This document shows, piece after piece, positions 17,440 through 35,247 of a stretch of 64,000 nucleotides of DNA. Position numbers and translations under genes: made by a program. The notes under the pieces were generated by a model that worked only from the letters and a program-made list of their open reading frames with translations, had not been told where the DNA came from and searched no databases. The DNA is taken from the sequence record PZ540767.1. One strand, given 5' to 3'. The first letter of the stretch is position 1, and the number at the start of each line of letters is the position of its first letter. The DNA comes from a phage.

Positions 17440-18516
17440 ATGGCTATTAGACTGCAACAAATTGCTGCACCTAACTTTGCTGGTTCTAACCAATTACTGC
17501 TGGCAGCAAACCAGCAGATTGGTAATGCTCTCCAGGGGCTACAAGGCACCCTGGGGCAGTATCGTGATGAAGTAGTACGCCGTAATACAGCTCAGGCTGT
17601 AGGACTGCTTACTGGGGCTACAGATGCTAATGATCTGGCCCAGCGTCAACAGCAAGTAGCACAGTTGGTTCAGCAAGGGGATATTGACCCCACTCGTGTA
17701 TCTGAAGTGGCAGCAACCATGCCAGATACTTTGTTAGGACGTCAGACTAATCAGCTAAAGCTGAACCAGATTCAGACTGCACAGCATGATGCACCATTAA
17801 TGGGTGCTTATATGCAAGCTGTTATGTCTGGGGATCAGAATGCAGCTAAAGGTATTTTGTCGCAATTCCAGGGGGATGCTTCAGATGCTCTGAAGTTTGC
17901 CTCTGATTGGGATATCAAAAACCAGCAGTTGAATCTTCAACGGTCTGAACTGGCACAGCGTCAAGCTCAGTTTGCTGCAACTCAGGCAGCAGCTAAGGCA
18001 AGAGCCGGGCAGAGTAATGCACTGCTTAAAGCCTTACCTGGTTTGCTTAACACAGGTAATGATATTCAGGGGAAGGCTGAAGCCAGGGATTTACAGGCTA
18101 ATGCTCAGGATGCTCAACAACGTGTTGCTATGGATCCTATAAACAACCCTAAGCTTAATGTTGCTGGGTGGGCTGATGCTAACAGTGATGTTTGGTTTAG
18201 GGGCTGGGGAAGACAGGCAGACTCTGACAGAATTTTTAATGCTCTGAAGGATCAACCAGCTTTTAAAGCACTTAATCCTCAACAGCAGATAAATATCCTA
18301 GACGGTGCCCTTGCTAATGAAAACTCCCGCGAAGATAAGGGAAATGTTTCTACTGTAAATGCTGCTACTAAGTATCTGACTGATGCAACGAAGCGCTTAA
18401 ATACCCTGAAGATTACTTCACGGCAAGCAGAGGATGCAAAAGATCAGCAATCTGTTATGCAAGAGCAAAGGGATCGTTTAAATAAGCTGCTTCTGCCCTT
18501 ACTTTTCCAACAGTAA
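17440..18516 (+). CDS. virion protein (Gln/Ala-rich)
   Basis: 358 aa; immediately upstream of the giant polymerase gene. Confidence 0.5.
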   Translation: MAIRLQQIAAPNFAGSNQLLLAANQQIGNALQGLQGTLGQYRDEVVRRNTAQAVGLLTGATDANDLAQRQQQVAQLVQQGDIDPTRVSEVAATMPDTLLGRQTNQLKLNQIQTAQHDAPLMGAYMQAVMSGDQNAAKGILSQFQGDASDALKFASDWDIKNQQLNLQRSELAQRQAQFAATQAAAKARAGQSNALLKALPGLLNTGNDIQGKAEARDLQANAQDAQQRVAMDPINNPKLNVAGWADANSDVWFRGWGRQADSDRIFNALKDQPAFKALNPQQQINILDGALANENSREDKGNVSTVNAATKYLTDATKRLNTLKITSRQAEDAKDQQSVMQEQRDRLNKLLLPLLFQQ

Positions 18517-18560
18517 TGAGGTTACAATCTGGGTACTCCACAATACTAAGGAATACTCAG

Positions 18561-21500: not shown

Positions 21501-24500
21501 ACTGAGACTCAACAAGATAATGTAGCTCATGGTGCTCTGAGTATCTTTGGTAAAGTTGGTGAGTCCCTGAAAGCTCTGCGTGAGAAAGCTTTGGCTGAAC
21601 CTAAAGGCTTACAGAACCTTGTGCTTACTGGTTTCAACCAGCGAGTTCGTCCAGGTTTTGGTAGCCCACTGGTAGCAGTGAAAGACTTTATCAATACTCT
21701 GAAAACTGCTGTGGATACTGGTAGCTTCACTGAAGTTAACCGTTTCCTGAAACAGCATATCAGTGAGTCGAAAGCTGAAGGTGCTAAACAGAAAGCTCTG
21801 CTGAAACAGTTTGTGGAATTCCATGATCACATCACAGCTAACCTGGATAACATCATCCGTACTAAAGCCCCTGAGTATCGTTATCAGGACTTTGCTCAGT
21901 TTATCTTGGATGAGAATGGTAACTTTGACTCCAATACTAAAACTGGTATTGCAGCAGGTATCTTCTCCTGGCTTGGTGAGAATGGGGATAAGATGTTCCT
22001 GAACCAGAGTGAAGTAGCTAAAACTCTGCGTATCAAAGAAGATCAGTTAACTCCACAAGCCATGTCTCGTATGGCTGATATTGGCTATCGCCAAGACTTG
22101 ATCATGTCCCAACTTGGTCAACGTATTTATCAGGCTATGGGCTTTGCTAAACGTGCTGACGTTGATCCTAACCGTGCCAGCAAATTGCAGAATGCTCTGG
22201 GTGCTTATGCTCTCCATGCCATGTATTCCAATGGCTATATGGAACAGTCTTTAATGACTGCTAAAGAGTACTTCGATCTGCAAACCATGGGTCTGGATGA
22301 ACAATCAGCTAAAGAAGCTGCACAAGCTTTCCAGAATGACTTTGGTGTTTCCCCTAACGATGCCAAGCACAAGATTGTGTTTAGCCGTCCTGCACGTAAC
22401 TTTGATGCAGAAGGTAAACCAGTAGCTATTGAAGCTATCTCTGACATTAAGAATGGAATGAAAGATACCCGTTCTCTCATGTCTAAGCTGTTCGGTTATG
22501 ATCCTGCTGTACGTGAGGTTCTGACCACTAAGCCTGCTGGTTTCAAACAGAAAGTCTTCGGTAAAATGAATCGTGAAGTTCCTTCTGTTTTGGCTGCTCG
22601 TATCAGCAAAGCAATGCAATATGACTACACCATTGATCAGGGTGTAGTGAATGCTATGCGTACTATGTCCACTGTAGATAATGCTGCTCTGCAACATATC
22701 TTTGGTGTACGTACTGATGCTGATGTGCCCAATGAAATGGAGATCTTCAAGAAAGGACGTGAAGCCAAGAATGCTGATATCCAACGTTCTATGGAAATGG
22801 GTTTAGACTTTGCTAACCGTAGGGGTACTAACCCATTCTGGATGCCTATGGAAGTCTGGACTAACCAACGTATTGGTGATCTGGCTTCAGAGTTCAACCC
22901 ACAGGGTTCCAAAGTACACCGTGCTATGGGTGGCTTGAGTGCTCACCAGGTAGAGATTTCTGTAGCCCGTAATGCTCCTGTGCTGGACGCAGATGGTAAG
23001 CCTACTCAGTATGGCCTGTTCCTTGTATCCCTGGCTCAGGGTATGGAAGAAGCTCCTGTAATTGGTGCTGATGGTAAGAAACTGAAGTCTGTTGATAAGC
23101 AGACCTATGCTACCTTCTTACCTGCTTTCCAGAATTACCTGCGTAAACCAGAGAACATTAAGGCTGTACGTGCTATGCAGAAAGTGATCGCTGGTTCAGC
23201 TACTACTGCTGATACCAACGTCATTAAGAATGCTGTGGCTGAGTATGGTATGAATGGTCAGTCTTTTGCTGCCCTGCATAACCTGGCTCAGTATGCTACT
23301 GCTCTGGAATCTGGTAAGTCTTCTGTTAAGCTGCTGGCTCAAATGGAATCGGACGGTGTTACTAACGGCCCTATCCTGACTAACATCCTGAATGGCTCTG
23401 CTGACTTCGATCTACTGAAGCGTGGTGGTATTTATCGTGAAGGTGACAATATTACCAACATGCCTACTTATCGTGAGTTGGGTGGTCAGGATTACTACGA
23501 GCTGCTGGGTGATGCTATGCGTCAGCATTGGGCTGATTACAAAACCAATGCACCTGCTAGTCAGCAAGGTCAGATTCAGGCTCTGGAATATTTCTCTACT
23601 GGTTATGGTGCTCGTTCTAAGGCCAAGACTCTGGCTACCCCATTCAACTACTCTGCTGGTATTCCAGCACTGAAAGCTGCTATGGGCCGAGCTACTGTAG
23701 AGGATGTTTACTCTAAGATTGGTTCCCTGATCCCACTGGCTAAAAGCAATAACAAAGCAGACTTTGCCAAGGCTTATGCTGAGGTGAGTAAAAACCTTTC
23801 TGTACTCCTGGGTCAGAAAGTAAATCTGCCACGTACTGCTGATGGTCTGGTTAAGTTCAGCCTTAACCCGGCTCAAACTAAACGCATCATTGATGTGGAT
23901 TCTCAGACTCGCGGTGTTGCTACAGAGACTGCTGTTAATGAGGTTGCTGCTGACTTCATTGCATCTCGTGATGCTAATACCAGTCTGGTTAACACAACCT
24001 TTACCCTGGCTAACCTTCGCTACAATGCTGCTAAAGCTGCACTGCTGAAGAAGCGTATTGCTGAGGGTAAAATCCCTGTGGATGCTAAAGGTGCTCCATT
24101 GGAAGGACTCACTCAGGCAGATCTGGATAAGCTATCCCGCATGATTCCTAACATGCCTTCTGCAACTGGTGTTCTGTCTGAGAATACCAAAGCTTCTGGT
24201 TACCCAATGGCTAAGGTGGAGAAAGCTTTTACTGCTAAGTCTCCTGCCACCAGCATTGATATCTACTTCAAAGAAGCTGCTAACCCTAAACCAGCAATGG
24301 ATGCTAATGGGATGCTGCTGAGTCAAGGTCTGGTAGGTGGATACAAATCTACCCAGTCTACTGTGACTGAGACTAAGCTGACTAACCCTGGTGTTGCTAT
24401 GGGTGCTAACGTTACTCAGGGTACTGATGCTGCAATCAGCTCTGATGTAATCAGCAAGATCGAAAGCCAGAACGTGCATGATGCTAACATCCTGTCTCCT

Positions 24501-27500
24501 GACAATGTGCTGAAAGGTGCTCGTATCCAGAACAAAGCTATGTTTGATGCTGTGGTTTCTTATCATCCTCAACATCTGGCTGCTTCTGCACTGCTGACTG
24601 AAGTTCGTAGTCTGGCTGGTGCTAACCTGTCTACCAACGACAAGGTTGCAGCGAAGAAAGCTCTGGAAGCCATGAAGACTAAGATCCTGGGTAAAGACTT
24701 CAAGGGCAACATGAAAGCTGCTCTGAACACTATCCTTAACCAGGCATATGATCGTGACATTAAGAAACTGGAGACTCTCTCTGAAGTCTATGCTGTTAAC
24801 CAGTATGGTACTGAGGGGGGTGAATACCTGATCACTGATACTGATCGTAAGAAAATTGGTGATGAGATTGCACGTCTGAAACGTAGTCGTGCTGCTGGCT
24901 TACAACGTATCTCTGCTATGTTCTCTAAGGGTAATGCCCCAAAGGCTGAGGCCAACCAGTATCCTGATAAGATGAGACAATACCTGTATGAGGCTTCGGC
25001 CTCTACAGGCTCTGTGTCAGCTTCTGAGGTGATGGCTCGTACCAAAGGTAAGTTTGCTAACCCAGTATATAACGAACTCCACAATCTCATTTCTGGTTTG
25101 ATTCCAGCTGATGCTGTGGTGAACGTACTGGATGGGCAGACTATGCCTAAGAATGTTAAGGGGCAGTCACTGCCCCAGAACCGTGATGCCATTGCATGGT
25201 CTTATCAAGATAAAAACACTGCACAGGTTAACCTGTCACTCAGCAAAGAGGCTTCACCTGAAGTCTTGCTGCATGAACTGACTCACATTGCTCTGGGACG
25301 TGCAATTGCTACTGCTGATTCAAATCCAAAAGTAAAAGCTGTACTGGCCCGTACAGAGAAGCTAATGGGTAGAGTGACCAAGCTGGTTTCAGCTGATCCT
25401 CAATTGACTCAGAAGTTTGCCCCTGCTTTGGCTAACGTGGATGAATTTATCTCCTGGGGTATGACTAACCCAGAATTCCAACGTTACCTTGATACCATCA
25501 CTGGTGTGCCTGAAATCTCAGGTCGTAACCGTGGATGGTTGGGTACTGCCTTTAAACAGTTTGTGGATCAAATGTCAGGCATCTTTGCTGCTGTAACTGG
25601 TCGAGCTATTAATGCTCGGGTTACTACTGCTCTGGAAGCTCTGACCTTCGATACTGCACATCTGGTTCAGGCTATTAATCCTACTGCTATTGAGAGTCCT
25701 GTATCTTCTATCAGCCACCCTATGAGCAACACTAACAGTGCTGCTGATCAGGTAGCTAAGTTTAGCCATGTGGATATCTTTGATAACCTGGCTTCAACAG
25801 GTGGCAAGACTAACTCAGCACAGTTCACAGGTAACCTCCGTAATGTAATATCCACTGTGGCGGATCAGCTTTACGGTGCTTTAGGCTCCAGAGTCACCCA
25901 GAATGCCAATGAGAATTATACTCCTGGTCAAGTCTGGAATGAGGCTGTAGCCACTGGGAAAGCCCCTGTCAGCACCGAAGCACTGAGCAATGGGTTTGTA
26001 CTGACTAATCAGGAAGCCTTTGCTGTGGAGGCCATTGAGGCTGCTGTATCTGAATCTCTGGCTTCTGGTTTCACTTCACCAGTTAACCGGGAGATTCGTC
26101 GTACTTGGCAAGCTGCTAAACAATCCCTGAAACCAGAAGACTTCCATAATGGAAACTGGAATCAGGCAACTCAAGCAGAAAAACGAGCTGCTCAACAGAA
26201 ATGGAATTATCTGTTTGATGTAACGAATGACTCTGGTGAGTCCCAGCATCTGTCTCGTTTCGTTGCTATGGCTATTGGGCATGAAGACACCAGTAACTTA
26301 CTTGGCTTCCAGATGGAAGATGGTAAGGACTCTGGTAATACTGCCTTTGAACAGGCTACTGCTTACTTTAACCAGGCTGTTAATACAGTCTCTGGCATGT
26401 TGACCAATACCCATCAAGGACAAGCTGCAAATGCTCGTGCTCAAGCACTAGCTGAAAAGCTGATCCAGATTGAACTTAAGAACCGTGATACCACCATGAA
26501 TATTCTTACTGGTGGGATCGACAAAGTAGAGAATGCCTTAGATACGGCTGCTGCTAAGTCTAAACAGTTCCTGGGTAAAATCGTTAAAGCTACTGGTATT
26601 GATCAGTCCTCCAACAATGCTCTGAATGCTATGGGCAAAGTTGCAGGATTGGCTGCTCGTGATCAGCTGGGTAGCCTGAAAGAAACTATTAAAGAGTTCC
26701 GGGACTTTAATGCCCCTAGTACTCCAGAAGGTTCTCTGGCTTCCATTCTGACTGAAGCAACGAATGCTGATGATGTTCGTGCTCTGCATGAATCTCTGTT
26801 ACGTTCTACTAAACGTATTGAACAGGATCGTGCAACCTTAGCTGCTGTTACTGCTAAGAACTTAAATGAGATGTTTGATAACAATGGTCAAGACCTGACT
26901 AAAGAAGATCGTACAGCAATGACTTACTCACTGCTTCGTACTGATCTTCAGTCTGTGTTGCACATTGAAGGTATGAACCTGAATAACTTACATAAACTGG
27001 TTTCTAATACTGGTTATCGTAAGCAGCAGATCAATAACCTTGAGAAAACCATTAGCCAGTATGCTAACGGTAATGATAAGATCATTCGTGCCAAGGCTCT
27101 GGGATTCTGGATGGCTACTGGCAGAAATACCCTGGGACGTGATTTAGTTCTGAATGCAAAAGCTATTGCTACCGGAGCTGCTACTCACTATTCCACAGTA
27201 GGTATCGAACCGACTCTTGATGAAGTGAACGCCATTGATGCTCTGGCTTCAATGTACGCTCTAAGCTACACCAAGACCGAAAACCGTGTTCGCACTGCTG
27301 CTGTAATGGAACGTGAGCTTGCACGAGGTAAAGACAATGGCATTAAAATGCTGATGGCTACTTATGCGAACCTGATTGAGGATTCTGCTAATACGCTGTT
27401 TGCTGGTAACCAGTTGTCTCGCATTAAAGGCTATTTGCCTGAAGATACCAATCCTCATCATGACTTACGTGCGGTTGAGTCGGGGAGTGCAGATGAAGCA

Positions 27501-29198
27501 GCACTGGTGAACATGGGATACCAAAAAGTATCCCCACTGTCCCAGGACTCTTTGTCAAAACACTCTGGACGTGTACTGTATGTGACCAAAGAGAATGGGT
27601 ATCAACGAACCGTCTCTGGTACTTTCAGTTTAACTGGAAGCCAGCGTAAAGGTTCTTCCCTAAGTGGGGATCGTGCTGTTGCTGATCGTGTTCGAGCTGA
27701 CGAGTTAGAACAGTTAAGGCAAGCGTCCTATGCAGACGTGCGAGGGCGTGAAGCACTGTCCCACACTGCCTTTGATCCTACTCAGATCCAGGATAACCAT
27801 GTAGTGCCTGTATTAAGCACTGATGGTCATATCATGGACTTCCGTTACATGGCTACCCACAATACTCGTGACACGTTCCTTGATCGTAATAATGACTTTG
27901 CTGACCTTGTTGGTCGTCTGGCTGGTCAGAATATCGATAAGGGTGATGCCCCAAGCCAGAATGCTAAGATCCTGGAAGCTCTGCATGAAGACTCTAAGGC
28001 TAATATCCTGAAGAATCCTAATGCTTACTTTGAGATTGGGCCTAATGCACCTACTGAGCGAGGACGTGAGATCTGGGCAATGATGCCTTATGAAGCACGT
28101 ACTAAAGCTACTTCTCTGTGGGGTGCTGATCGTATGTATATTCGAAACGATCTGGTTAACCTTACTTTTGGCTTCCGTAAGTATTCACTGGCTAACATTT
28201 TTGATGTTGATCCAGAACAGCGTAATATTGCTCAGGGTGTTGCTGCTGGTTTACTTGAAGCTGCTTTTGGTGATAAGGCTAAAGCTTATGTAATTAAGGG
28301 TGAGCGTGGCATTCAGGAATTTATGCAGTCCTATAAGGACGTGATCGTTATTCGTAACCTGAAAACCCAGTTCAGTAATATTATGTCTAATACTGCTCTA
28401 CTGGCTGCTTATGGCGTTAACCCGGTACGTATGGTTAAAGATATCCGTACTGCTCTGGTTGCTGGGATTGACTACCGTAAACAGTACTCGCTGCTACTCA
28501 AGTATCAGCAACAGCAACGTGCTGGTATTGGTAACTTTGCTCAGATGGAGTCCCTGATCAATGAGACGCAGGATCGCTTGAATGCTAACCCTCTGGCTAA
28601 GTTTATTCAGGCAGGTATGATGCCTACCATCGTAGAAGACGTTCAGCCTGATGCTGATGGTTACACTTATGGTTCTAAGATCCGTAAGAAATTTAATGAG
28701 GTATCTGCCCATCTGCCAGCTTCTGCTGTAACAGCTGCTCGCTGGGCTGTGATTGATAAAGGTACTGCACCTCATAAATTCTTAAGTGATGCTGCTCAGT
28801 TCAGTGACTTTGCTGCTAAGTATGCTCTGTATAAGCACCTGACAGAACATGCCCGAGATCGCCTGAGTCATACTGAGGCTTTACAACGTGCATCTGATGC
28901 TTTTGTTAACTATGACATTCCAGCTACAGCTACTCGCCAATATCTGGATGATATGGGGATTACCATGTTTACGAAGTATCGTGTTCGTATCCAACGTGCA
29001 ATGTTCTACTTGATGGATAAACGTCCAGCATCTGTTATGGCACATATGGCAATTACAGGGCAGTTTACTCATGCACCTGATGCTATGGAGCCACTGTTTG
29101 CACGTAACTTAGGTAACCCATTCACACCTTCAGTATTGCAGGGTGGGAGTTTGTTGAATGTCCCAATGCCTTGGAACTTATTCAGAATGGCATACTAA
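18561..29198 (+). CDS. virion-packaged RNA polymerase (N4 vRNAP-like giant protein)
   Basis: Single uninterrupted ORF of about 3,550 aa; ATG at 18561 has an AAGGA RBS (first in-frame ATG at 18516 lacks one); followed by terminator. Confidence 0.85.
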   Translation: MAGNSSPLDKFLVPQQVTGQEAAQALPAPTQPTIAQRVNDASTRILNNLTGQGMYPTEEGEIARLKRINNEQSAYAKEVAAKDSDYGWSSTNFLDPETSSLTDRTASTFVNYGKALTDAVNGLAGKTDKTFKTLGNVLDQASIPNDALDAYRRVQAGKGTEADNALLDRQGAWWTQPIEVNQYGVPEMGNQTLRQRLDAINERQKTQNQSSYDNLEKLANPVQMQQAAADIEKSIEGKSGLDKFAAGLAAIARNPGAAGQTMVESAPYMVGGIPGMLASSAMQGGSVLSQYLDTQRKASDGQIPTAKDVAIGTGLGVVDGALNFAESIINRTAMLPGSKVLPAGVADRLVNAAQRIAPRSSTAAAALARVTAPTLDLAKNALTEGLVSGAQNQIEENYAKGKNEWDTKGNDVAFFQGIAAATGFGAPRAALSTAGEVANTAAQAMQKRTEAQDPVGQAARNTTPEDLMNPQSEGYNPAAAIRRAGMEWTRNTDATTDEQKAEIQSQAQSAMDAAQNDHQNNLDMINQRATAERTLADAGKFIPAIQERLDQLSNDPNADPDAVNQLQTILAQQTEARDAAQQQLDAMPSQEELAQSATRSAEVLDQAKSEFGKFSSATGMNTNTAKPENPTASDIISHPMSYTNEDLQEFVRNAPANATPAELGTLRALADAKVAENAVKTGSKVNSEIFKSTSNNLSLGDYQQGINTAVQAGDTNRIQSLMTGINNFETSHTAKADIAQQYLNEAKQNGKSYQILKTSNGWELNTGKRLDAKAQAKNGGFTIHKGSTGLVNNIVNEAKAITATRQYMEGIATPSTNQNVTGSTEQVASPEAQPEGAATVAGETGAQEQQAQPTISPLTTRDIRAMDQATLEKVMATTQQAMSSDTNPVLARNLDALDREWTRRADVATNQNRGVDAPHRKLDDSFKPKAQENEIQRSQAETTTQTEHTQADIDNESTGSESQQTAPVNVDDVVTNTDTLTETQQDNVAHGALSIFGKVGESLKALREKALAEPKGLQNLVLTGFNQRVRPGFGSPLVAVKDFINTLKTAVDTGSFTEVNRFLKQHISESKAEGAKQKALLKQFVEFHDHITANLDNIIRTKAPEYRYQDFAQFILDENGNFDSNTKTGIAAGIFSWLGENGDKMFLNQSEVAKTLRIKEDQLTPQAMSRMADIGYRQDLIMSQLGQRIYQAMGFAKRADVDPNRASKLQNALGAYALHAMYSNGYMEQSLMTAKEYFDLQTMGLDEQSAKEAAQAFQNDFGVSPNDAKHKIVFSRPARNFDAEGKPVAIEAISDIKNGMKDTRSLMSKLFGYDPAVREVLTTKPAGFKQKVFGKMNREVPSVLAARISKAMQYDYTIDQGVVNAMRTMSTVDNAALQHIFGVRTDADVPNEMEIFKKGREAKNADIQRSMEMGLDFANRRGTNPFWMPMEVWTNQRIGDLASEFNPQGSKVHRAMGGLSAHQVEISVARNAPVLDADGKPTQYGLFLVSLAQGMEEAPVIGADGKKLKSVDKQTYATFLPAFQNYLRKPENIKAVRAMQKVIAGSATTADTNVIKNAVAEYGMNGQSFAALHNLAQYATALESGKSSVKLLAQMESDGVTNGPILTNILNGSADFDLLKRGGIYREGDNITNMPTYRELGGQDYYELLGDAMRQHWADYKTNAPASQQGQIQALEYFSTGYGARSKAKTLATPFNYSAGIPALKAAMGRATVEDVYSKIGSLIPLAKSNNKADFAKAYAEVSKNLSVLLGQKVNLPRTADGLVKFSLNPAQTKRIIDVDSQTRGVATETAVNEVAADFIASRDANTSLVNTTFTLANLRYNAAKAALLKKRIAEGKIPVDAKGAPLEGLTQADLDKLSRMIPNMPSATGVLSENTKASGYPMAKVEKAFTAKSPATSIDIYFKEAANPKPAMDANGMLLSQGLVGGYKSTQSTVTETKLTNPGVAMGANVTQGTDAAISSDVISKIESQNVHDANILSPDNVLKGARIQNKAMFDAVVSYHPQHLAASALLTEVRSLAGANLSTNDKVAAKKALEAMKTKILGKDFKGNMKAALNTILNQAYDRDIKKLETLSEVYAVNQYGTEGGEYLITDTDRKKIGDEIARLKRSRAAGLQRISAMFSKGNAPKAEANQYPDKMRQYLYEASASTGSVSASEVMARTKGKFANPVYNELHNLISGLIPADAVVNVLDGQTMPKNVKGQSLPQNRDAIAWSYQDKNTAQVNLSLSKEASPEVLLHELTHIALGRAIATADSNPKVKAVLARTEKLMGRVTKLVSADPQLTQKFAPALANVDEFISWGMTNPEFQRYLDTITGVPEISGRNRGWLGTAFKQFVDQMSGIFAAVTGRAINARVTTALEALTFDTAHLVQAINPTAIESPVSSISHPMSNTNSAADQVAKFSHVDIFDNLASTGGKTNSAQFTGNLRNVISTVADQLYGALGSRVTQNANENYTPGQVWNEAVATGKAPVSTEALSNGFVLTNQEAFAVEAIEAAVSESLASGFTSPVNREIRRTWQAAKQSLKPEDFHNGNWNQATQAEKRAAQQKWNYLFDVTNDSGESQHLSRFVAMAIGHEDTSNLLGFQMEDGKDSGNTAFEQATAYFNQAVNTVSGMLTNTHQGQAANARAQALAEKLIQIELKNRDTTMNILTGGIDKVENALDTAAAKSKQFLGKIVKATGIDQSSNNALNAMGKVAGLAARDQLGSLKETIKEFRDFNAPSTPEGSLASILTEATNADDVRALHESLLRSTKRIEQDRATLAAVTAKNLNEMFDNNGQDLTKEDRTAMTYSLLRTDLQSVLHIEGMNLNNLHKLVSNTGYRKQQINNLEKTISQYANGNDKIIRAKALGFWMATGRNTLGRDLVLNAKAIATGAATHYSTVGIEPTLDEVNAIDALASMYALSYTKTENRVRTAAVMERELARGKDNGIKMLMATYANLIEDSANTLFAGNQLSRIKGYLPEDTNPHHDLRAVESGSADEAALVNMGYQKVSPLSQDSLSKHSGRVLYVTKENGYQRTVSGTFSLTGSQRKGSSLSGDRAVADRVRADELEQLRQASYADVRGREALSHTAFDPTQIQDNHVVPVLSTDGHIMDFRYMATHNTRDTFLDRNNDFADLVGRLAGQNIDKGDAPSQNAKILEALHEDSKANILKNPNAYFEIGPNAPTERGREIWAMMPYEARTKATSLWGADRMYIRNDLVNLTFGFRKYSLANIFDVDPEQRNIAQGVAAGLLEAAFGDKAKAYVIKGERGIQEFMQSYKDVIVIRNLKTQFSNIMSNTALLAAYGVNPVRMVKDIRTALVAGIDYRKQYSLLLKYQQQQRAGIGNFAQMESLINETQDRLNANPLAKFIQAGMMPTIVEDVQPDADGYTYGSKIRKKFNEVSAHLPASAVTAARWAVIDKGTAPHKFLSDAAQFSDFAAKYALYKHLTEHARDRLSHTEALQRASDAFVNYDIPATATRQYLDDMGITMFTKYRVRIQRAMFYLMDKRPASVMAHMAITGQFTHAPDAMEPLFARNLGNPFTPSVLQGGSLLNVPMPWNLFRMAY

Positions 29199-29203
29199 TA
29201 AAA

Positions 29204-29229
29204 AGCCCCTCAATGAGGGGCTTCTTTTT
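29204..29229 (+). terminator. rho-independent terminator after polymerase gene
   Basis: AGCCCCTC-AAT-GAGGGGCT hairpin followed by TCTTTTT. Confidence 0.75.
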
Positions 29230-29235
29230 GGCTCT

Positions 29236-29408
29236 TATGAGTCACGCTTTTCCTGGATGACTGCTCCAATGAGGCAAGCAATAAAAATTACAGCCACAAA
29301 GAACCAGAAGAAGCTAAGTAACCAGAAAGCTACCTTCATTAAAGCCAGTACAGCAATGGCTGCAATCACACAGAACAGGCCAATAAAGCCATTAATAACG
29401 TGTCTCAT
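29236..29408 (-). CDS. small membrane protein (57 aa), absent from ORF track
   Basis: Hand-translated MRHVINGFIGLFCVIAAIAVLALMKVAFWLLSFFWFFVAVIFIACLIGAVIQEKRDS; AGGTGA RBS; 10 nt downstream of 29419..30123. Confidence 0.35.
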
Positions 29409-29418
29409 AGATCACCTG

Positions 29419-30123
29419 TTAGTCGAAGTTAGCAAATGGGTCGTCTTCAGTATCTGCTGGTTTAGCAAAGCCAGCCTCACTGGTTTCAACTACTTTGGTT
29501 ACCGGAGTATCTGCCTGAGCAAACAGCTCGTCACCTTCAGATGAAGCCAGCCCAGCGTCTGCGAATGGATCGACTTCTTCTGCTACAGCAGCATCTTTGG
29601 CTTCTGGCAGCAGTTCATTTTCAGCACGCAGGTTTGCACCTTCGTCAATGTCGAATGGGGCAGCATTGTCTGCATCACTGGTTTCAGCAAAGAGATCTTC
29701 TTCACTTTCAGTTTGAGTTTCTGCTTCAGCTTTTACTTCAGCCTGTGCTGCGGCTTCTTCGGCAGCTTTATCAGCTTCGATTTCAGCTTTAGTACGACGT
29801 TTACGACGCTTAGGCTTATCGTCACCAGGTTCGTTACTGGTTTCCTCAGCTGAATCTTCTTCAGCCTCTTCCTCTTCCACTACTGGAGGCTCTGCGAAGA
29901 GTTGTTTAGCAACTTCAGACACAGAACCAGAACTAAGAGGGCCAGTTAAATCAGCAACAGATTTCAGGCGGAAGTTATCTTCGCCTACAGCTACAGCTGC
30001 CACGATCTGACCATCCAGAATACCTACTGTAACATCAGCCCCTTTAGCTGTAGGTACGAGACTGGAAAACGCATGTTTGGTCACCAGTTCGATCAGATCT
30101 TCAGTAGAAAGCAAAATACGCAT
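29419..30123 (-). CDS. acidic hypothetical protein with DDPF-type C-terminal tail
   Basis: 234 aa; AAGGA RBS; E/A-rich, basic KRRKRR patch, ends DDPFANFD. Confidence 0.55.
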   Translation of the reverse strand: MRILLSTEDLIELVTKHAFSSLVPTAKGADVTVGILDGQIVAAVAVGEDNFRLKSVADLTGPLSSGSVSEVAKQLFAEPPVVEEEEAEEDSAEETSNEPGDDKPKRRKRRTKAEIEADKAAEEAAAQAEVKAEAETQTESEEDLFAETSDADNAAPFDIDEGANLRAENELLPEAKDAAVAEEVDPFADAGLASSEGDELFAQADTPVTKVVETSEAGFAKPADTEDDPFANFD

Positions 30124-30125
30124 AG

Positions 30126-30689
30126 TTAATCCTTAGTAGCTAACATGGTTAGCATTTTGAAAGTTTCAGTTTTAATTCCAGCATGTACGGCTGCTACAGC
30201 GTCTGCCATGTGCTCTGCTTTACTGGCAATGATCTGGCCATTAAGTTTGGGCCAGTTAGCATCAGGATATAAACCAGATGCCCAATCAATACCTTGCTGC
30301 TTTGTTGCAGAGGATTTACCAGTGATTTCCATTCTGGTTTCAGTAGCATTTACACAGATCACAGGTTTAGCACCATGACTGTTTCGTATGGCTGCTATTA
30401 ACCCAATACAGGCACCTGCACCCAGTGAAGCTCTGGCATTCTGACTGCCATGAGGAACTTCAATACAGATGGCATCTATGTAAGGCATATAGCTCATTAC
30501 CTTCTCAAACAGGTATTCAGCTCTGGCTAAGTCCTGAGAAGATTTCCGTACTTGCTTGGAATTATCTTTGGGTGGTTGGATAACATCCAGCTTGGCAACA
30601 CTAAGAGATCTGGCTTCAGTGTCATATAACATTGCAGCCAGTCCCCAGTTACTAAAGCTTGGATCCATCCCCAGCAGTTTGAGTTTCAT
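30126..30689 (-). CDS. RuvC-like Holliday junction resolvase
   Basis: 187 aa; N-terminal LLGMDPSFSNWG resembles the RuvC motif I; later acidic residues (EVPH, HMADA) in expected order; GAGGA RBS. Confidence 0.55.
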   Translation of the reverse strand: MKLKLLGMDPSFSNWGLAAMLYDTEARSLSVAKLDVIQPPKDNSKQVRKSSQDLARAEYLFEKVMSYMPYIDAICIEVPHGSQNARASLGAGACIGLIAAIRNSHGAKPVICVNATETRMEITGKSSATKQQGIDWASGLYPDANWPKLNGQIIASKAEHMADAVAAVHAGIKTETFKMLTMLATKD

Positions 30690-30975
30690 TAGGATCCTCT
30701 TCCATGGTGAAGGGCAGTTTTAAGAACTGGTTCAGAGCATACTCTACACCCAGTTTAAATAAAGCACGTTCACGAGGATCAGTAATCAACTCAGGTTGAT
30801 CAGCACCATCGAATTGGACGTTAAGATCGATATCGTCCGGGGCTTGAATTACAGCCAACAGGTGATGGCCAATGTTACGATGCCAATCTGCTACCAGGAA
30901 ACCTAACTGAAGGTGGTTCTCTACTGGCAGAATGTTTTCAGGTTGATCCTGTACTACGGTTGAATCTTGGGTCAT
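30652..30975 (-). CDS. hypothetical protein (107 aa)
   Basis: ATG at 30975 with GAGG RBS; 3-prime end overlaps the resolvase start by 38 nt. Confidence 0.4.
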   Translation of the reverse strand: MTQDSTVVQDQPENILPVENHLQLGFLVADWHRNIGHHLLAVIQAPDDIDLNVQFDGADQPELITDPRERALFKLGVEYALNQFLKLPFTMEEDPNETQTAGDGSKL

Positions 30976-31017
30976 GGTAACCTCAGAATAAGCCCCCTGG
31001 TTTAGGGGGCTAAGTTA

Positions 31018-31758
31018 TTACATGGTAAATGGATCATCACCAGTGGTGGCATTGTCAGATCCTGGGTTGAAACCAGCACCTGCAAAGTTACCACCCGGAG
31101 CACCAGCGTTACCCTGACCAGTCACTTCTTTGAAGCGATCCCATACCTGGCCTTTGTTAGCTTCGAGCCACTTATCTTTGAAAGTAGCGACTTCCTGCTT
31201 ACCACGAATTTCCTGTTCAGTCTTATCGTCTTTACTACGGAAGACTTTTGCAATGGCATTGATCTCACGAGCTTCATTGATCGGCTCATACTGACCATCA
31301 TCGTTGCGTTTCTGCTTGTTCTCTTTAATACGCTGGATAGCGAAGGTGATCGGTTTACCACACAGATCCACCAGCATAGGAACATCAGTCGGAACTTCGG
31401 CTTTCTTCTCGAAGTTATACAGGTTGATGGTTTTGGTTTCTGGTTCCAGTTTAACCAGAGGCTTACCGCAGGCCAGCAGGCAGATCGAGTTTGCTTTCAG
31501 GAAGTTCTTGGTGTACTCGCCTTTATCGTTGACGACTTTACCCTGACCGTTCATGAACCAGATCTGCTCTTTGTAGATGCCGTGATCATCTTCGAATTCG
31601 ATGTTCATGGCTTGAGCTTTGGACTTTTCCGACTTGGTGATGTAAGCCAGTTTGATGATGCCCGGATAGACGTCAGTGTCACGAATGCGCATACCAGTGC
31701 CCAGGGTATCTTTCTCTACTGCTTTTTCTGCATCATAGTTAAAATCAAAATAAGACAT
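31018..31758 (-). CDS. ssb: single-stranded DNA-binding protein
   Basis: 246 aa; C-terminal Gly-rich linker ending in acidic GDDPFTM tail, like bacterial/phage SSB tips; AAGGTAA RBS; N4-like position. Confidence 0.6.
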   Translation of the reverse strand: MSYFDFNYDAEKAVEKDTLGTGMRIRDTDVYPGIIKLAYITKSEKSKAQAMNIEFEDDHGIYKEQIWFMNGQGKVVNDKGEYTKNFLKANSICLLACGKPLVKLEPETKTINLYNFEKKAEVPTDVPMLVDLCGKPITFAIQRIKENKQKRNDDGQYEPINEAREINAIAKVFRSKDDKTEQEIRGKQEVATFKDKWLEANKGQVWDRFKEVTGQGNAGAPGGNFAGAGFNPGSDNATTGDDPFTM

Positions 31759-31759
31759 G

Positions 31760-32290
31760 TTAGTTACCTTTTGTTTCTAGGCCATGGTTCTCATGGAAGC
31801 CTAATTCAATTAATTTCTCAGCCCGGCAGATAGCTGCTTCATTGGCTGTTTTGAAGGTACGTTGCCATACCTTCTTACGGTTCATCGTGATTTCTGCTAC
31901 ATAGCGATCACGACGTTTGCAGTACCAAATACCTTGGTGTCCAGTAATGGTATTGCTGATTGCACCCCTGTTTCGCATATTCTGAAGCATCGTAGTGTCC
32001 TTCAGATTTACTGCCCTGTTGTCATCACGAATATGGTTATCGTGGTCTACGTGCCCTTTAGGCCACTGCCTGTTGTGCATGTAGTAACAGATGATATGCT
32101 CTCCATAGGTAGTGCCGAAGATTGTTATATGGCGGTAGCCGCTAGCCTTGTGGAGACTCCCAGCGCGACTACCGATAACAATTCTCTTATTACAAGACTT
32201 GCTAATCCAAGTAAGATGTCCAGTAAGAGCATCATATTTTAGTACCTTTTCAAGCATTTCAAGGGTGAGATCTTTTTTGGGAATTTTCAT
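31760..32290 (-). CDS. HNH homing endonuclease with AP2-type DNA-binding domain
   Basis: 176 aa; HVDHDNHIRDDNRAVNL HNH motif followed by AP2-like GIWYCKRRDRYVAEI...ANEAAICRAEKL. Confidence 0.7.
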   Translation of the reverse strand: MKIPKKDLTLEMLEKVLKYDALTGHLTWISKSCNKRIVIGSRAGSLHKASGYRHITIFGTTYGEHIICYYMHNRQWPKGHVDHDNHIRDDNRAVNLKDTTMLQNMRNRGAISNTITGHQGIWYCKRRDRYVAEITMNRKKVWQRTFKTANEAAICRAEKLIELGFHENHGLETKGN

Positions 32291-33018
32291 GCGTAATACT
32301 CATGCAAACGGTCTAAGACCAACTGCATGTCATTATCGATGAAGGTTTCCTTGATATCAAATAAGTCCTCTGGGCCACGTAAACGCTCGTTAATGGTGTT
32401 CTTAGTAACCTGGGTCTGGTAAACATGCTTGTACCCGAGCATCTCCTCGCGCTCGTTAATGTGAAGTAACCCGTTCTGGTATTCTTCCAGATCCGTAAGC
32501 TTCACTTTCTTACAGGCAATAACCAGACTGAAGTATGACTCAATGCCCTGGTTCTTCAGTGCCCCTTTAACAGGTACACAGGTTTCACGAACCATGTCAT
32601 CGTTAACTTCATCCTTCGTGTGAGCTAAGAAGATCACGTTCTTGGTAGACGTGGCTACCAGCACCTGCATCAGGTGTTTGAACTGCTGGGCAAATTGGCC
32701 CCATGCAGCTTGGGTATTCGAGCTAGTAAGTACGAGCTGGCTCTCTACCATGTCCATGTAGTACGTCAGTGAATCAACTACAATGGTGTGAATATTCGGC
32801 TGGGTTTCAGCCCACTGAAACGCTTTAGGGAGGATATCCCAACGTGCAATGGTACGTTCCAGGAAACCTGATTTGAACGGCAGCTTTTTACCTGATTCAC
32901 AGTTAAGGTACAGCACACCTTCCGGGTTCTTCAGGTTCTTCAGTGACCGTGATTTACCACTTGCTGATTTACCTACAAGCAGTACAAGGTTGTCATTAAC
33001 GCTGATTTGATCGGACAT
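32287..33018 (-). CDS. P-loop ATPase, probably RecA-like recombination/replication ATPase
   Basis: Walker A GKSASGKS near N-terminus; ATG at 33018 with AGAGGT RBS (ORF track begins earlier at a non-ATG codon). Confidence 0.55.
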   Translation of the reverse strand: MSDQISVNDNLVLLVGKSASGKSRSLKNLKNPEGVLYLNCESGKKLPFKSGFLERTIARWDILPKAFQWAETQPNIHTIVVDSLTYYMDMVESQLVLTSSNTQAAWGQFAQQFKHLMQVLVATSTKNVIFLAHTKDEVNDDMVRETCVPVKGALKNQGIESYFSLVIACKKVKLTDLEEYQNGLLHINEREEMLGYKHVYQTQVTKNTINERLRGPEDLFDIKETFIDNDMQLVLDRLHEYYA

Positions 33019-33087
33019 AATTACCTCTTTTGAAATGCCCCCGAAGGGGCAAACCCACAAAGGGAACGGAAGTTCCCCAACACACAA

Positions 33088-35247
33088 TTACTTAACTTTC
33101 TTGGCAATGGTGAGCATGATGCTGCCATCAATTTCACTCTCGTCCAGCTTACCGGGAAGCTTGTTGTTCAGTTCCTTCACCTGGCTTCTGATACGATCCA
33201 GAGAGAACCCTGCATCTACCAGTACCATGGCATAGTTGAACAGCTGCTTATTACGGTTACCATCACCAGTGTTGTTAAGTACCCAACGTTCCAGATTATC
33301 CAGTTGATGCTGATCAGTAAGCATTTGCTTACGATCCTCGTTCTTACTGGTTTTAGGAATGAAGGGGAGCACATCGAATAGCTGACCATCCGTATACTCA
33401 TAATGCCCTTTATGTGTTAACCATTTCTTAGAACGGTGTGAACACTGGTCATCAGCTTTAAATGGCAAGCCTTCAAGGACGTTGTTATAAAACTCCTTGT
33501 AGTCTTTGGCATCCAGCTTCAGCTCATAGTTAATAGGCAAAATGATACGGAAACGGTTAGTCTCTTCGGTATGTCGTTTAGTGGTGTAATACAAAGCCCT
33601 GTAGTCTTTCAGCAGTAACTTAGCTGTAGACAACTGACAGGTTCCATCCACATCAATAACCAGAAGGTTAAAGCCAGGAATGGCATTCTCTTCATTACGA
33701 TAACCGTTCATCACTTTATGGGTCAGCCAGTGAAGATCAGGCTGATTTACCAGTCTGTGCAGTTGATCGAATGGTACGTCTTTAGGTACGAAACCAGTGG
33801 TTAAATCCTTGCTGTATGACAAGATCATCTCATCAAGGTTAGTTGGTTTCAGAGATTCACCACTCAGGAATAAGATGCCATCAGTGTAGCTTCGCTTCAC
33901 AATGATGTTGTTTTTATAACCATAAGCAATAGCCAGGTTAATCATCTCATCCTTCTGGTTTTTACCACCACGGAAATAAGGCAGATCCTCATCCATGTCA
34001 GCCAAAGTAACGTCTGTGCCTACATCAGCTAAATACTTAGCCAACTTGGCATAGTTACGTTCAGGCGTAAGCAGCTTGGCAAAAGCTTCACCACATTCTT
34101 CAGTAAGCTTAATGGCGTTCTCCAGATGATCCTGAGAAAGCACAGGTGAACCATCTACGAAAGCATAAGCAGCAGCCAACTTCATGCACTTAAAGTAACG
34201 GTTCTCAAGTTCACCCTTTTGGATAGTTTGATACTCGTTTAAGTGTTTGGATTTGGCTTCGCAGTCCAGACGGTACTGCAAGATGTTACGTAGTACTTCG
34301 CGTGGGATAGTGATAGCTTTACGAAGGTTAGAGATATCTGCCAGCTTCTCCAGCTTCTTACCTAGATCGGTAATGAAGGTATCAGCATTGGCATCAAACA
34401 TCTGCTTCATAATGTCATCAGCTGTAATCCCTTCTGGTTTCTTAGCTTTCAGCAGGAAACCAAAGTGACAACGACGTGCATAGCCCATCTCCAGCATGTC
34501 ATACAGACGACGTTCAGTTACATCCCCATCAAACAGCTTGGTTGGAGTACCAAACAACAACATGTTAGTTGGAGTACTACCTACCAGCTTCTCATGGCGA
34601 ACGTTTTCAGCAGACGATTTGATCAGCTTATCTTTTACTAAACCGAGGTCATAGAGTTCCAGGAAAGTATCCAGTACCTCAGTCTGACCTACCAGGTTTG
34701 CACCGATTTCATCAATCTGCAAGTTAACAGCACCTGCATTACCCATAAGCAGTTTATGACGCATCTGCTTAACTGCTGGGGTAGTACCAGAGTCAAAGCT
34801 AAACAGAAGACTGCCTAAGCTTTCAAACTCTTTACGCACCTTCTCCAGCTCATCTTCTGGGTCAACCAGATTAGACGCTGTGGATTTACGTTGAGCACGT
34901 TTCTGAGCAAGCTCAAACATGTTCTGTTCAGCTACTGTAGGGAAAGTTACTTCCAGGAATCGTTCACGGAATCCTGCAAGCAATTCACGTTCGATCAGGC
35001 TGGTGGAATAGCCTTTACCAGTACCTGACGGAGACAGGTTCAGAGCGTAGATATTGATAGGCAGATCGTTACGATCATATCCTTTAATGACTGCTCGCAT
35101 AGACGAGGCCATTACACCCCAGTAGTAAGCCAGAACTACCCTGAAAAAGAGTCGTTCTTCGTTAAGGGTTTTAGCATTGAGAAAATCAACGATCTTCTCA
35201 CTGGTGGGATGATATTTCATCTCACTCACTGGTTTGATGGAGATCAT
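33088..35247 (-). CDS. primase-like replication protein (N4 gp43-like by position)
   Basis: 719 aa; N-terminal P-loop-like SPSGTGKGYS, C-terminal acidic LLVIDVDG motif; AAGGA RBS. Confidence 0.5.
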   Translation of the reverse strand: MISIKPVSEMKYHPTSEKIVDFLNAKTLNEERLFFRVVLAYYWGVMASSMRAVIKGYDRNDLPINIYALNLSPSGTGKGYSTSLIERELLAGFRERFLEVTFPTVAEQNMFELAQKRAQRKSTASNLVDPEDELEKVRKEFESLGSLLFSFDSGTTPAVKQMRHKLLMGNAGAVNLQIDEIGANLVGQTEVLDTFLELYDLGLVKDKLIKSSAENVRHEKLVGSTPTNMLLFGTPTKLFDGDVTERRLYDMLEMGYARRCHFGFLLKAKKPEGITADDIMKQMFDANADTFITDLGKKLEKLADISNLRKAITIPREVLRNILQYRLDCEAKSKHLNEYQTIQKGELENRYFKCMKLAAAYAFVDGSPVLSQDHLENAIKLTEECGEAFAKLLTPERNYAKLAKYLADVGTDVTLADMDEDLPYFRGGKNQKDEMINLAIAYGYKNNIIVKRSYTDGILFLSGESLKPTNLDEMILSYSKDLTTGFVPKDVPFDQLHRLVNQPDLHWLTHKVMNGYRNEENAIPGFNLLVIDVDGTCQLSTAKLLLKDYRALYYTTKRHTEETNRFRIILPINYELKLDAKDYKEFYNNVLEGLPFKADDQCSHRSKKWLTHKGHYEYTDGQLFDVLPFIPKTSKNEDRKQMLTDQHQLDNLERWVLNNTGDGNRNKQLFNYAMVLVDAGFSLDRIRSQVKELNNKLPGKLDESEIDGSIMLTIAKKVK

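Follow-up and report, generated by a model that had tools for sequence, protein, structure and literature searches.

Genes and features of the SSB region

The DNA analyzed here, a stretch of 64 kb that we call the window, comes from a Klebsiella N4-like phage (Schitoviridae, Efbeekayvirus). Its minus strand carries an SSB gene (31018..31758), a gene for a RuvC-like Holliday-junction resolvase (30126..30689; PHROG 159, E=1.8e-32) and, with the resolvase gene directly upstream, the gene of an acidic protein (29419..30123). A terminator-like hairpin (30993..31008, minus strand) lies directly 3' of the SSB gene, at a place where a terminator is also annotated in phage FBKp27, and a bidirectional terminator hairpin (29203..29223), likewise annotated in FBKp27, separates the acidic-gene operon from the convergent virion RNA polymerase gene. 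A 57-aa hydrophobic ORF of membrane type (29235..29408, minus strand), present 3' of the acidic gene in many N4-like phages, is mentioned as context only.

The SSB has 246 aa and belongs to the N4 gp45 family (PHROG 743, E=3.5e-65). A tblastn search with it returned 450 phage records, among them N4 SSB, with which it shares 33% identity over residues 10–208; thus the identity proposed in a preliminary description of this DNA, where it was an SSB candidate, holds. The gene order is also that of N4-type SSB genes, i.e. after the primase and a Sak4-like ATPase, before the resolvase and convergent with the virion RNA polymerase gene. The protein ends in ...GQGNAGAPGGNFAGAGFNPGSDNATTGDDPFTM, in which a Gly-rich linker is followed by DDPF two residues before the stop. 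In the translation this flexible linker is rich in Gly, Ala and Asn (about aa 214–239; 31042..31119, minus strand), and in the SSB alignment it is gap-rich and poorly aligned. The tail itself, GDDPFTM (31021..31041, minus strand), includes F244, which occupies an invariant column and aligns with F262 of N4 SSB. A motif of the form [SDKTNAP][LIMVP]F was found within the last 12 aa of 86 of 89 SSBs, and the remaining three have GLF or VLF. A sequence search found no solved structure for the SSB family.

The acidic protein has 234 aa, a pI of 4.05 and 59 D+E against 20 K+R. It terminates in ...KPADTEDDPFANFD, with DDPF four residues before the stop. Its tail, EDDPFANFD (F230 and F233; 29422..29448, minus strand), is identical in 121 of 121 close homologues; the preliminary description had named a non-conserved tail among the points that would speak against its proposal. 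Upstream of the tail there are four internal motifs, all on the minus strand: EEDLFAE (F145; 29683..29703), conserved in Efbeekayvirus loci, AAPFDI (F157; 29647..29664), EVDPFAD (F187; 29557..29577) and GDELFAQ (F201; 29515..29535). The protein therefore holds five such motifs, the tail included, and about five D[LP]F motifs are likewise present in the Nepra and MIF8 orthologues. A basic patch, KPKRRKRRTK (aa 103–112; 29788..29817, minus strand), followed by a conserved AEIEADK segment, is invariant in 121 homologues; comparable basic patches occur in orthologues.

The preliminary description had pointed to two DDPF-type tails in this region, and this was confirmed. In fact, a six-frame translation of the window contains DDPF only three times, twice in the tails of the SSB and the acidic protein. 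Computed from the window's own amino-acid frequencies, DDPF within the last ~9 residues is expected in ~0.003 of the ~90 window proteins, and the chance that at least two proteins carry it near the C-terminus is ~4e-6. The Asp codons of the SSB and acidic-protein tails are unlike (GAT GAT versus GAC GAC), so what the tails have in common is protein sequence rather than a repeat in the DNA.

The acidic protein belongs to a large family in Schitoviridae

The homologues found for the acidic protein number 332. A tblastn search with it yielded only 13 close Klebsiella phages, since other matches were lost to the low-complexity filter. Wider relatives were therefore collected from syntenic loci and with an HMM for the N-terminal domain. 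Judged by its sequence, the protein is a member of a large uncharacterized Schitoviridae family, here named N4 gp47-like, to which it is matched by the HMM of the N-terminal domain alone with E=1.5e-14. The family comprises PHROGs 7641, 18842 and 27655, each labelled "unknown function", and reaches 3095 clusters at 50% identity (profile search, E<=1e-3). With the N-terminal-domain HMM alone, a gp47-like protein was found in 65 loci. One homologue on a 146-kb contig was considered as a non-Schitoviridae member and rejected, as its locus proved to be a replication module of the usual N4-like kind. Nothing in Pfam or NCBIfam matched the SSB, the acidic protein or typical gp47-like family members.

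Members of the family have an N-terminal alpha/beta domain of ~50 residues, a basic patch, a long disordered acidic linker and, close to the C-terminal end or right at it, one or more short [S/D]-[L/I/P]-F motifs. The N-terminal domain follows the pattern MxIxLxxxEIxxAlxxY... and corresponds to no known fold. In the AlphaFold2 model of the family member P0143, residues 1–52 are ordered (pLDDT ~90) and the rest is disordered. From this model and the family alignments, the N-terminal domain of the window protein is predicted to span about aa 1–58 (29950..30123, minus strand), with a helix and then a beta hairpin; this domain is divergent (14–25% identity to the family), and its own AlphaFold2 model is poor (pLDDT 50). 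The window protein otherwise has the features of the family, namely the N-terminal domain, a disordered acidic linker ending in [S/D][L/I/V/P]F and a resolvase-adjacent gene.

The tail motif is present in 62 of 65 gp47-like proteins and 86 of 89 SSBs, versus 40 of the 776 other ORFs with a length of 100 aa or more. Moreover, in a divergent set of new gp47-like representatives recruited through the N-terminal domain, it was found in 136 of 137 (SLF in 68 and SIF in 50). Most relatives, N4 included, have neutral or basic tails such as ..KSLFGKK, and the acidic DDPF is a derived state of the Efbeekayvirus/Cbunavirus lineage. The SLF core hardly varies, whether the phage infects alpha-, beta- or gamma-proteobacteria; a highly conserved host target would account for this no less well than a target encoded by the phage.

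We found no published description of the gp47-like family or of its likeness to SSB tails in the literature on gp47, Efbeekayvirus and SSB-Ct mimics, and no literature report of a second family-wide conserved protein with a tail of the N4 SSB type. To our knowledge, no second protein bearing an SSB-type tail has been described for N4; in the reference N4 gp47 sequence, the protein's own tail is hidden behind a probable frameshift. The "gp47" of a 2026 Migulavirinae preprint, a tail-fibre chaperone, has no relation to this family.

Linkage and fusion to Holliday-junction resolvases

The acidic gene starts 2 nt past the resolvase stop codon, and its AAGGA Shine-Dalgarno sequence lies inside the 3' end of the resolvase gene. 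Across the family, a resolvase gene immediately precedes the gp47-like gene in 36 of 40 non-redundant loci (27 RuvC-like and 9 RusA-like). In addition, RusA::gp47-like fusions were observed in 5 loci and in 10 of the 137 representatives; their basic patch reads GGRPR. These fusions retain the N-terminal domain, whose role can therefore not be just to bind the resolvase. The adjacency might reflect only co-expression. The gene order together with the fusions suggests a link with DNA metabolism no less than with transcription.

The fusions also explain a misleading annotation. The window protein matches PHROG 14238, "RusA-like Holliday junction resolvase", with E=2.7e-5, but the match covers only profile positions 145–281, i.e. 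the gp47-like module of RusA::gp47-like fusions, and the window protein has no RusA domain. The label "RusA-like resolvase" on the Tribble_ER49 orthologue is thus rejected, since the RusA part is present only in fusion proteins.

The two tails change together

We compared the tails of the SSB and the gp47-like protein of the same genome. Their best-segment similarity is 19.25, against 15.55 ± 0.63 in shuffled pairings, and none of 20000 shuffled pairings reached the observed value. The net charges of the two tails are correlated (rho=0.83, p=2e-12), as are the residue counts after the Phe (rho=0.64), and the residue preceding [LIVP]F is identical in 33 of 45 tail pairs (permutation p=0.0006). 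These statistics refer to distinct tail pairs from related lineages, with no phylogenetic correction. Examples of pairs (SSB/gp47-like) are QSDLFL/VLDLFS, PASLFS/GGSLFS, PKSMFG/GKSIFG, KSSLFDD/KSSIFDVD and, in the window, GDDPFTM/EDDPFANFD. Such co-variation suggests that the two tails share a docking partner.

Tail type does not go with the host: Klebsiella phage Pylas has the tails ..PTKSLFSK and ..KTRSLFART, whereas the window phage, also from Klebsiella, has DDPF in both proteins. Codon identity at residues common to both tails is 46%, versus 38 ± 4% in shuffled pairs, and this comparison speaks against gene conversion between the 3' ends of the SSB and acidic genes and excludes a recent event of this kind. 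Tail charge was also set against the net charge of neighbouring proteins, and the same trend appeared for the SSB core, Sak4, RuvC and primase. The complementarity between SSB core and tail is therefore unspecific, and no single receptor was picked out by the charge correlation with neighbouring proteins.

The preliminary description had regarded the tails as protein-recruitment handles. This idea is strengthened by their conservation and co-variation across Schitoviridae, but the "acidic tip" on which it was built is no rule of the family, N4 itself ending in ..KSLFGKK.

Interpretation and alternative explanations

We consider that the acidic protein is probably a resolvase-linked adaptor that mimics the SSB tail, and put the probability of this reading at about 60%. 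Since the tails change together by lineage, they may be read as ligands of the same receptor or receptors, with the acidic protein imitating the SSB. The gp47-like gene is translationally coupled to the resolvase gene, and in some phages the two are fused; hence an adaptor role is proposed, in which the protein would bring the resolvase or a branch-processing activity to the docking site of the SSB tail, or would exchange there with the SSB. In the clade of the window phage, both tails changed from the usual K-S-L-F-G-K-K type to the acidic D-D-P-F, and the proposed adaptor reached five motif copies, which makes it multivalent. The motif with its conservation and co-variation, the gene linkage with the fusions, and the disorder of the linker are observations; partner binding by the motif, the use of a common partner by both proteins and the resolvase as cargo are inferred. 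As for the receptor, we give slightly less than an even chance to a phage-encoded partner, i.e. the SSB core, the DNA polymerase or the primase, and part of the remainder to something else.

A precedent is T7, whose gp2.5 and gp4 have in common a tail ending in Phe, through which both bind to a single site on the DNA polymerase (PMC12339929). In both phages, the SSB and a second protein of DNA metabolism carry the same short Phe-containing C-terminal tail on a flexible segment. However, the proteins are non-homologous, the second one is a helicase-primase in T7 and a disordered, resolvase-linked protein in the window phage, and most members of the present family have basic and not acidic tails. 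The two window tails are acidic and contain Phe, but, unlike in T7 gp2.5 and gp4, this Phe is not terminal: TM comes after it in the SSB, and ANFD in the acidic protein. Neither tail therefore has the canonical form of the E. coli SSB-Ct (DDDIPF-COOH), with its free carboxylate on the last Phe, and neither appears to be of the T7 type.

An alternative that we hold to be rather unlikely is the idea of the preliminary description, which is partly supported, namely regulation of late transcription, in which the acidic protein would compete at late promoters for host RNA polymerase as an anti-activator or timer, or would co-activate it while tethered to DNA. N4 SSB is a textbook transcription activator that acts without DNA binding, and its C-terminal residues were mapped decades ago. 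According to PMC2784036 (citing Miller 1997) and PMC4496689, activation needs the tail residues S260, K264 and K265, which were mapped as the region that activates host RNA polymerase, and N4 SSB touches the conserved C-terminal region of the beta' subunit. The window SSB is homologous, and S260 sits inside the family-wide SLF tail motif. Moreover, the motif core is kept in phages of very different hosts, as would fit a conserved host target, the disordered region, with acidic residues around bulky hydrophobic ones, resembles an activation domain, and the basic patch could bind nucleic acid. Against this, in the N4 tail ..KSLFGKK, S260 opens the SLF and the last two Lys are K264 and K265, whereas the acidic GDDPFTM has D/P and T/M instead and only the Phe aligns. 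The activating residues are thus absent from the window SSB, and activation of host RNA polymerase is not simply transferable from N4 to GDDPFTM. The link to N4 SSB and RNA polymerase drawn in the preliminary description is accordingly kept for the homologous N4 tail, which does hold the activating residues, and falls for the residues themselves in the window. Oppositely charged tails also occur in phages of the same host species, and late transcription leaves the resolvase link unexplained.

A wider form of the adaptor reading is more speculative still. The [S/D][L/I/P]F tail might be a portable address tag by which the SSB and the resolvase adaptor reach a common hub, in N4 the beta' subunit of the host's RNA polymerase. 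In that case gp47-like proteins would form a new class of viral SSB-tail mimics coupling recombination or branch resolution to an SSB-dependent late-transcription switch, with the five-motif form of the window as a multivalent scaffold or decoy.

We think it improbable that the tail receptor is the host beta sliding clamp, and equally that both tails are clamp motifs (QL[SD]LF) tethering the SSB and the resolvase adaptor to clamps on replicating phage DNA. Precedents exist: the archaeal Hjc resolvase has a C-terminal PCNA-binding motif, and in T4 a clamp-binding tail common to the late-transcription factors and the polymerase couples replication proteins to late transcription. Like the clamp-binding tails of T4 gp43, gp33 and gp55, the [S/D]-L-F core is C-terminal in more than one protein of the same system; it equals the last three consensus positions, and S and D alternate at exactly the position where the consensus has [SD]. 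The Cbunavirus motifs QSDLF, VLDLF and SLDLF are near-canonical. However, the match to the consensus (QL[SD]LF or QLxLxL) is generally partial: most tails lack the Q of position 1 and the L of position 2, EEDLF and GDELF match 2–3 of 5 positions, and DDPF and APF are poor matches. Among relatives, QSDLF and VLDLF occur. No clamp is encoded by N4-like phages, and we know of no reported requirement of N4 replication for the host clamp or Pol III. The clamp pockets, for their part, are conserved across bacteria (PMC11253446).

Clade-specific mimicry of the host SSB-Ct (DDDIPF), by which host proteins that interact with SSB, such as RecQ, ExoI, PriA, RecG and the chi subunit, would be captured or inhibited, appears very unlikely to us. 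As in bacterial SSB, where such a tip recruits partners, a disordered linker precedes a short acidic, Pro-Phe tip, and the acidic residues followed by P-F resemble DDDIPF (PMC5872125; for the context of SSB-Ct pockets see PMC3159472). DUF669 relatives of N4 SSB also have acidic tails (PMC4889955). Five copies would add avidity, and multivalent contacts with SSB cores are possible, as in SSB condensates (PMC11253446). The differences are nevertheless considerable, since the SSB has an N4/DUF669-like fold, the Phe is internal, and a second protein has acquired the motif and multiplied it. Pockets for the canonical SSB-Ct recognize the terminal carboxylate. Furthermore, the phage's own SSB bears the motif and the rest of the family is of the basic SLF type, so that one family-wide function is the simplest assumption.

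Finally, coincidence, a low-complexity artefact (e.g. a DNA mimic) or gene conversion of the two 3' ends is hardly credible and has already been largely refuted by the chance estimate, the motif in 136 of 137 divergent representatives, the strong co-variation and the codon comparison, although the low-complexity protein does draw spurious matches (a "tail protein" PHROG and a "ribonuclease E" label) and its whole C-terminal half is conserved within a shallow Klebsiella clade.

Significance

The resolvase-linked adaptor that we favour keeps from the preliminary description the notion of shared, functional-looking handles, and adds what was missed there, namely the five motifs, the large family and the tie to the resolvase. 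Two annotations can be corrected, the "RusA-like resolvase" label and the C-terminus of N4 gp47. The co-varying tail pair offers two independent probes for the tail receptor, and the adaptor role would be the first testable one for a family of more than 3000 clusters. Through it, SSB and resolvase, and perhaps late transcription as well, would belong to the same network of interactions.

The two tails and their genetic context

The 29000–32300 region matches the Klebsiella phages P19-618 and FBKp27 and their relatives (genus Efbeekayvirus, Schitoviridae) at 95–96% identity. The minus-strand operon runs in the order primase (33088–35247), Sak4-like/AAA_24 ATPase (32287–33087), HNH endonuclease (31760–32290), SSB (31018–31758), a 107-aa Gam-like ORF (30652–30975), RuvC-like resolvase (30126–30689), the acidic ORF (29419–30123) and a 57-aa membrane-type ORF (29235–29408), and a strong bidirectional hairpin terminator (29203–29244) separates it from the plus-strand virion RNA polymerase gene (3560-aa ORF, 18516–29198). 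A weaker terminator-like hairpin (30993–31008) lies directly 3' of the SSB gene, so SSB may be expressed at a different level from the resolvase and acidic-protein genes. The HNH endonuclease has an AP2-like domain, and its ends abut or overlap the neighbouring ATPase and SSB genes. At this position it is present in Efbeekayvirus and Cbunavirus and absent in N4, Pylas, Litunavirus and S6, and it is probably a homing-endonuclease insertion.

The preliminary description held that SSB and the acidic protein both end in DDPF-type tails, which was borne out. SSB closes, after a Gly-rich linker, with NATTGDDPFTM, and the acidic protein (234 aa, 59 D+E, pI 4.05) with TEDDPFANFD. Across the six frames of the 64-kb window DDPF occurs three times, two of them being these tails; the chance of two such tails, computed with the window's amino-acid frequencies, is about 4e-6. 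A DNA repeat as the source of the match is ruled out because the Asp codons of the two tails differ. Since Phe is terminal in neither tail, both depart from the canonical bacterial SSB-Ct and T7-type tips.

A protein family with SSB-like tails

By synteny, a protein at the same position was found in N4, Pectobacterium phage Nepra, Erwinia phage MIF8, Litunavirus, Erwinia phage S6, phage ECBP1 and a Vibrio phage. Their common features are a shared ~50-residue N-terminal segment, a patch of basic residues and a low-complexity acidic linker, and the C-terminus resembles the SSB tail of the same phage. The window's acidic protein belongs to this large family, here referred to as gp47-like. We took 80 further N4-like loci from IMG/VR via the SSB alignment and searched their ORFs with an HMM restricted to the N-terminal domain, which kept the tail from influencing detection. 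The motif [SDKTNAP][LIMVP]F fell within the last 14 residues of 62 of the 65 gp47-like proteins in this set and within the last 12 residues of 86/89 SSBs (the remaining three have GLF or VLF); among 776 other ORFs ≥100 aa long only 40 had it, and several of these 40 are unrecognised family members or fusions. Moreover, searching 1.84 billion representative proteins with a profile returned 3095 clusters at E≤1e-3 (1656 at E≤1e-10), and in 136 of 137 new representatives the motif lay no more than about 20 residues from the end (SLF 68, SIF 50).

In the N4 reference gp47 (EF056009; locus L002, 6316–6750) an A-run is one base shorter than in OLB145 (locus L091, 901–1356), with a 12-nt indel in addition. 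The last ~20 codons are out of frame relative to OLB145 and the DNA downstream is identical; read in the OLB145 frame, the 3' DNA gives AKPSLFAGLKR and a stop. The record thus probably conceals an SLF tail, masked either by an error in sequencing the homopolymer or by a frameshift in the lab strain.

The window's SSB is homologous to N4 SSB (33% identity), with 450 phage records matching, and when eight diverse SSBs are aligned the column of the tail Phe is invariant. The commonest SSB tails are KSLFGKK (N4), ASLFS, KSMFG and KSLFKK, while the window's lineage has GDDPFTM, GDNPFL (MIF8) and QSDLFL (Nepra). In N4 SSB, S260, K264 and K265 constitute, at least in part, the activating region for host RNA polymerase (PMC2784036, PMC4496689). 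Counted back from residue 265 (AAKSLFGKK), S260 is the Ser of SLF, and K264 and K265 are the lysines at the end; the activating residues therefore fall in the tail, and this family-wide element is functional in N4, the only phage tested in this respect.

Co-variation of the two tails

Distinct SSB/gp47-like tail pairs were compared, 40 for the segment score and 45 for the other measures. Within genomes, the top-scoring ungapped BLOSUM segment averaged 19.25 versus 15.55 ± 0.63 in shuffled pairs, and none of 20000 shuffles, which take no account of phylogeny, reached it. Over the 45 pairs, again with statistics that ignore phylogeny, tail net charge (rho=0.83) and residue count after Phe (rho=0.64) were correlated, and the residue preceding [LIVP]F was the same in 33 (permutation p=0.0006). 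Matched variants are spread over many separate lineages, including TTSLFG/TTSLFG, KNIFGKK/KSIFAKKK, KSSLFDD/KSSIFDVD, ADSLFQD/VDSLFNT and PTKSLFAK/PTKSLFARN. Gene conversion between the tails does not explain the similarity: where the residues agree, 46% of codons are identical versus 38 ± 4% in shuffled pairs, so the similarity is maintained at the protein level. Nor does tail type track the host: Klebsiella phage Pylas carries PTKSLFSK (SSB) and KTRSLFART (gp47-like), unlike the window's Klebsiella phage with DDPF in both proteins.

Linkage and fusion to resolvases

The preliminary description overlooked a connection to resolvases. Among 40 non-redundant loci, the ORF directly upstream of the gp47-like gene is RuvC-like in 27 and RusA-like in 9, two unrelated folds occupying one gene position. 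The window's acidic gene begins 2 nt past the resolvase stop codon, and its AAGGA Shine-Dalgarno sequence lies inside the resolvase's last codons. In five IMG/VR loci (L035 2281–3216; L067 6850–7692; L071 4552–5562; L072 6850–7692; L080 6854–7699) and 10 of the 137 representatives (P0190, P0210, P0222, P0227 and others), a RusA-like resolvase is fused ahead of a gp47-like part, which comprises the N-terminal domain, a GGRPR patch (basic, AT-hook-like), the acidic linker and the tail, with [SN][LI]F present two or three times. These fusions account for the weak match of the window's acidic protein to 'RusA-like' PHROG 14238, confined to profile positions 145–281. PHROG 14238 was built from RusA fusions, and through it the misleading label 'RusA-like resolvase' has passed to stand-alone gp47-like proteins, e.g. 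that of phage Tribble_ER49.

A multi-motif acidic variant

Both tails have turned acidic in the window's clade. Most family members have one or two motif copies versus five in the window's acidic protein (EEDLFAE, AAPFDI, EVDPFAD, GDELFAQ and EDDPFANFD), and D[LP]F is likewise present about five times in the orthologues of Nepra and MIF8, whose linkers are otherwise divergent. EDDPFANFD and KPKRRKRRTK, the basic patch, are retained in 121/121 close homologues; the patch region KPKRRKRRTKAEIEADK (29788–29838, minus strand; aa 96–112 and following) is invariant in these and retained in Nepra and MIF8. It is similar to arginine-rich RNA- or DNA-binding peptides.

A second repeated internal motif, [DE]PPF[DE]P, occurs as EDPPFDP, EDPPFEP, TEPPFEP or DEPPFDV in the gp47-like linkers of several lineages (L070, L050, L042, L026, L048 and L005) in which a basic, SLF-type motif is terminal. 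The window's clade may have derived its acidic P-F motif from this older one.

The 'Mu Gam-like' ORF (PHROG 15896, E=9e-11) overlaps the resolvase start and was observed in no lineage but the acidic-tail one (Efbeekayvirus, Cbunavirus). The sequence close to its C-terminus is FLKLPFTMEEDP, PFTM being the SSB end as well, and LPF followed by an acidic tail is kept in its Nepra and MIF8 orthologues; it may be a third motif-bearing protein or a coincidence. A 350-aa ATPase (60252–61304, minus strand; PHROG 1297, E=1.4e-96) ends in RHADELF, acidic and Phe-terminal like a T7-type tip. This end lies inside the conserved profile match and may thus belong to the fold instead of forming a free tail.

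Discussion

The simplest reading is that the tail would be a short linear docking motif by which SSB and the gp47-like protein engage the same receptor(s). The earlier interpretation thus finds partial support: the shared handle is well supported by comparison, as the tails are conserved and co-vary, but extrapolating from it to an 'acidic tip' and to RNA polymerase activation is unjustified for the DDPF tail type.

The evidence on the receptor is divided. Charge class shifts in both proteins together and irrespective of host, and the gene is consistently linked to the resolvase; these two findings favour a partner in DNA metabolism that the phage itself encodes, with the SSB core and DNA polymerase as candidates, by analogy with T7, where the gp2.5 and gp4 tails have one polymerase site in common (PMC12339929). 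The N4 data point to the beta' subunit of host RNA polymerase, and a conserved target in the host, whether beta' or the beta clamp, would fit an SLF core that hardly varies among phages whose hosts are distant. The beta clamp consensus is QL[SD]LF; the tail motif has the [S/D]LF core in common with it, and Nepra's QSDLF and VLDLF are near canonical. A charge-complementarity scan was non-specific and singled out no receptor.

An SSB tail common to a second protein (T7) and tails as interaction hubs (bacterial SSB) are already known. Our literature search found no description of the gp47-like family, of how its tail is shared with SSB throughout the family and co-varies with it, of its being coupled or fused to resolvases, or of the multivalent acidic variant in the window's phage. 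These results are relevant to workers on N4 or SSBs. The gp47-like protein would act as a resolvase-linked adaptor or competitor, and a multivalent tail array could, by analogy with SSB condensates (reviewed in PMC11253446), partition into SSB-rich assemblies.
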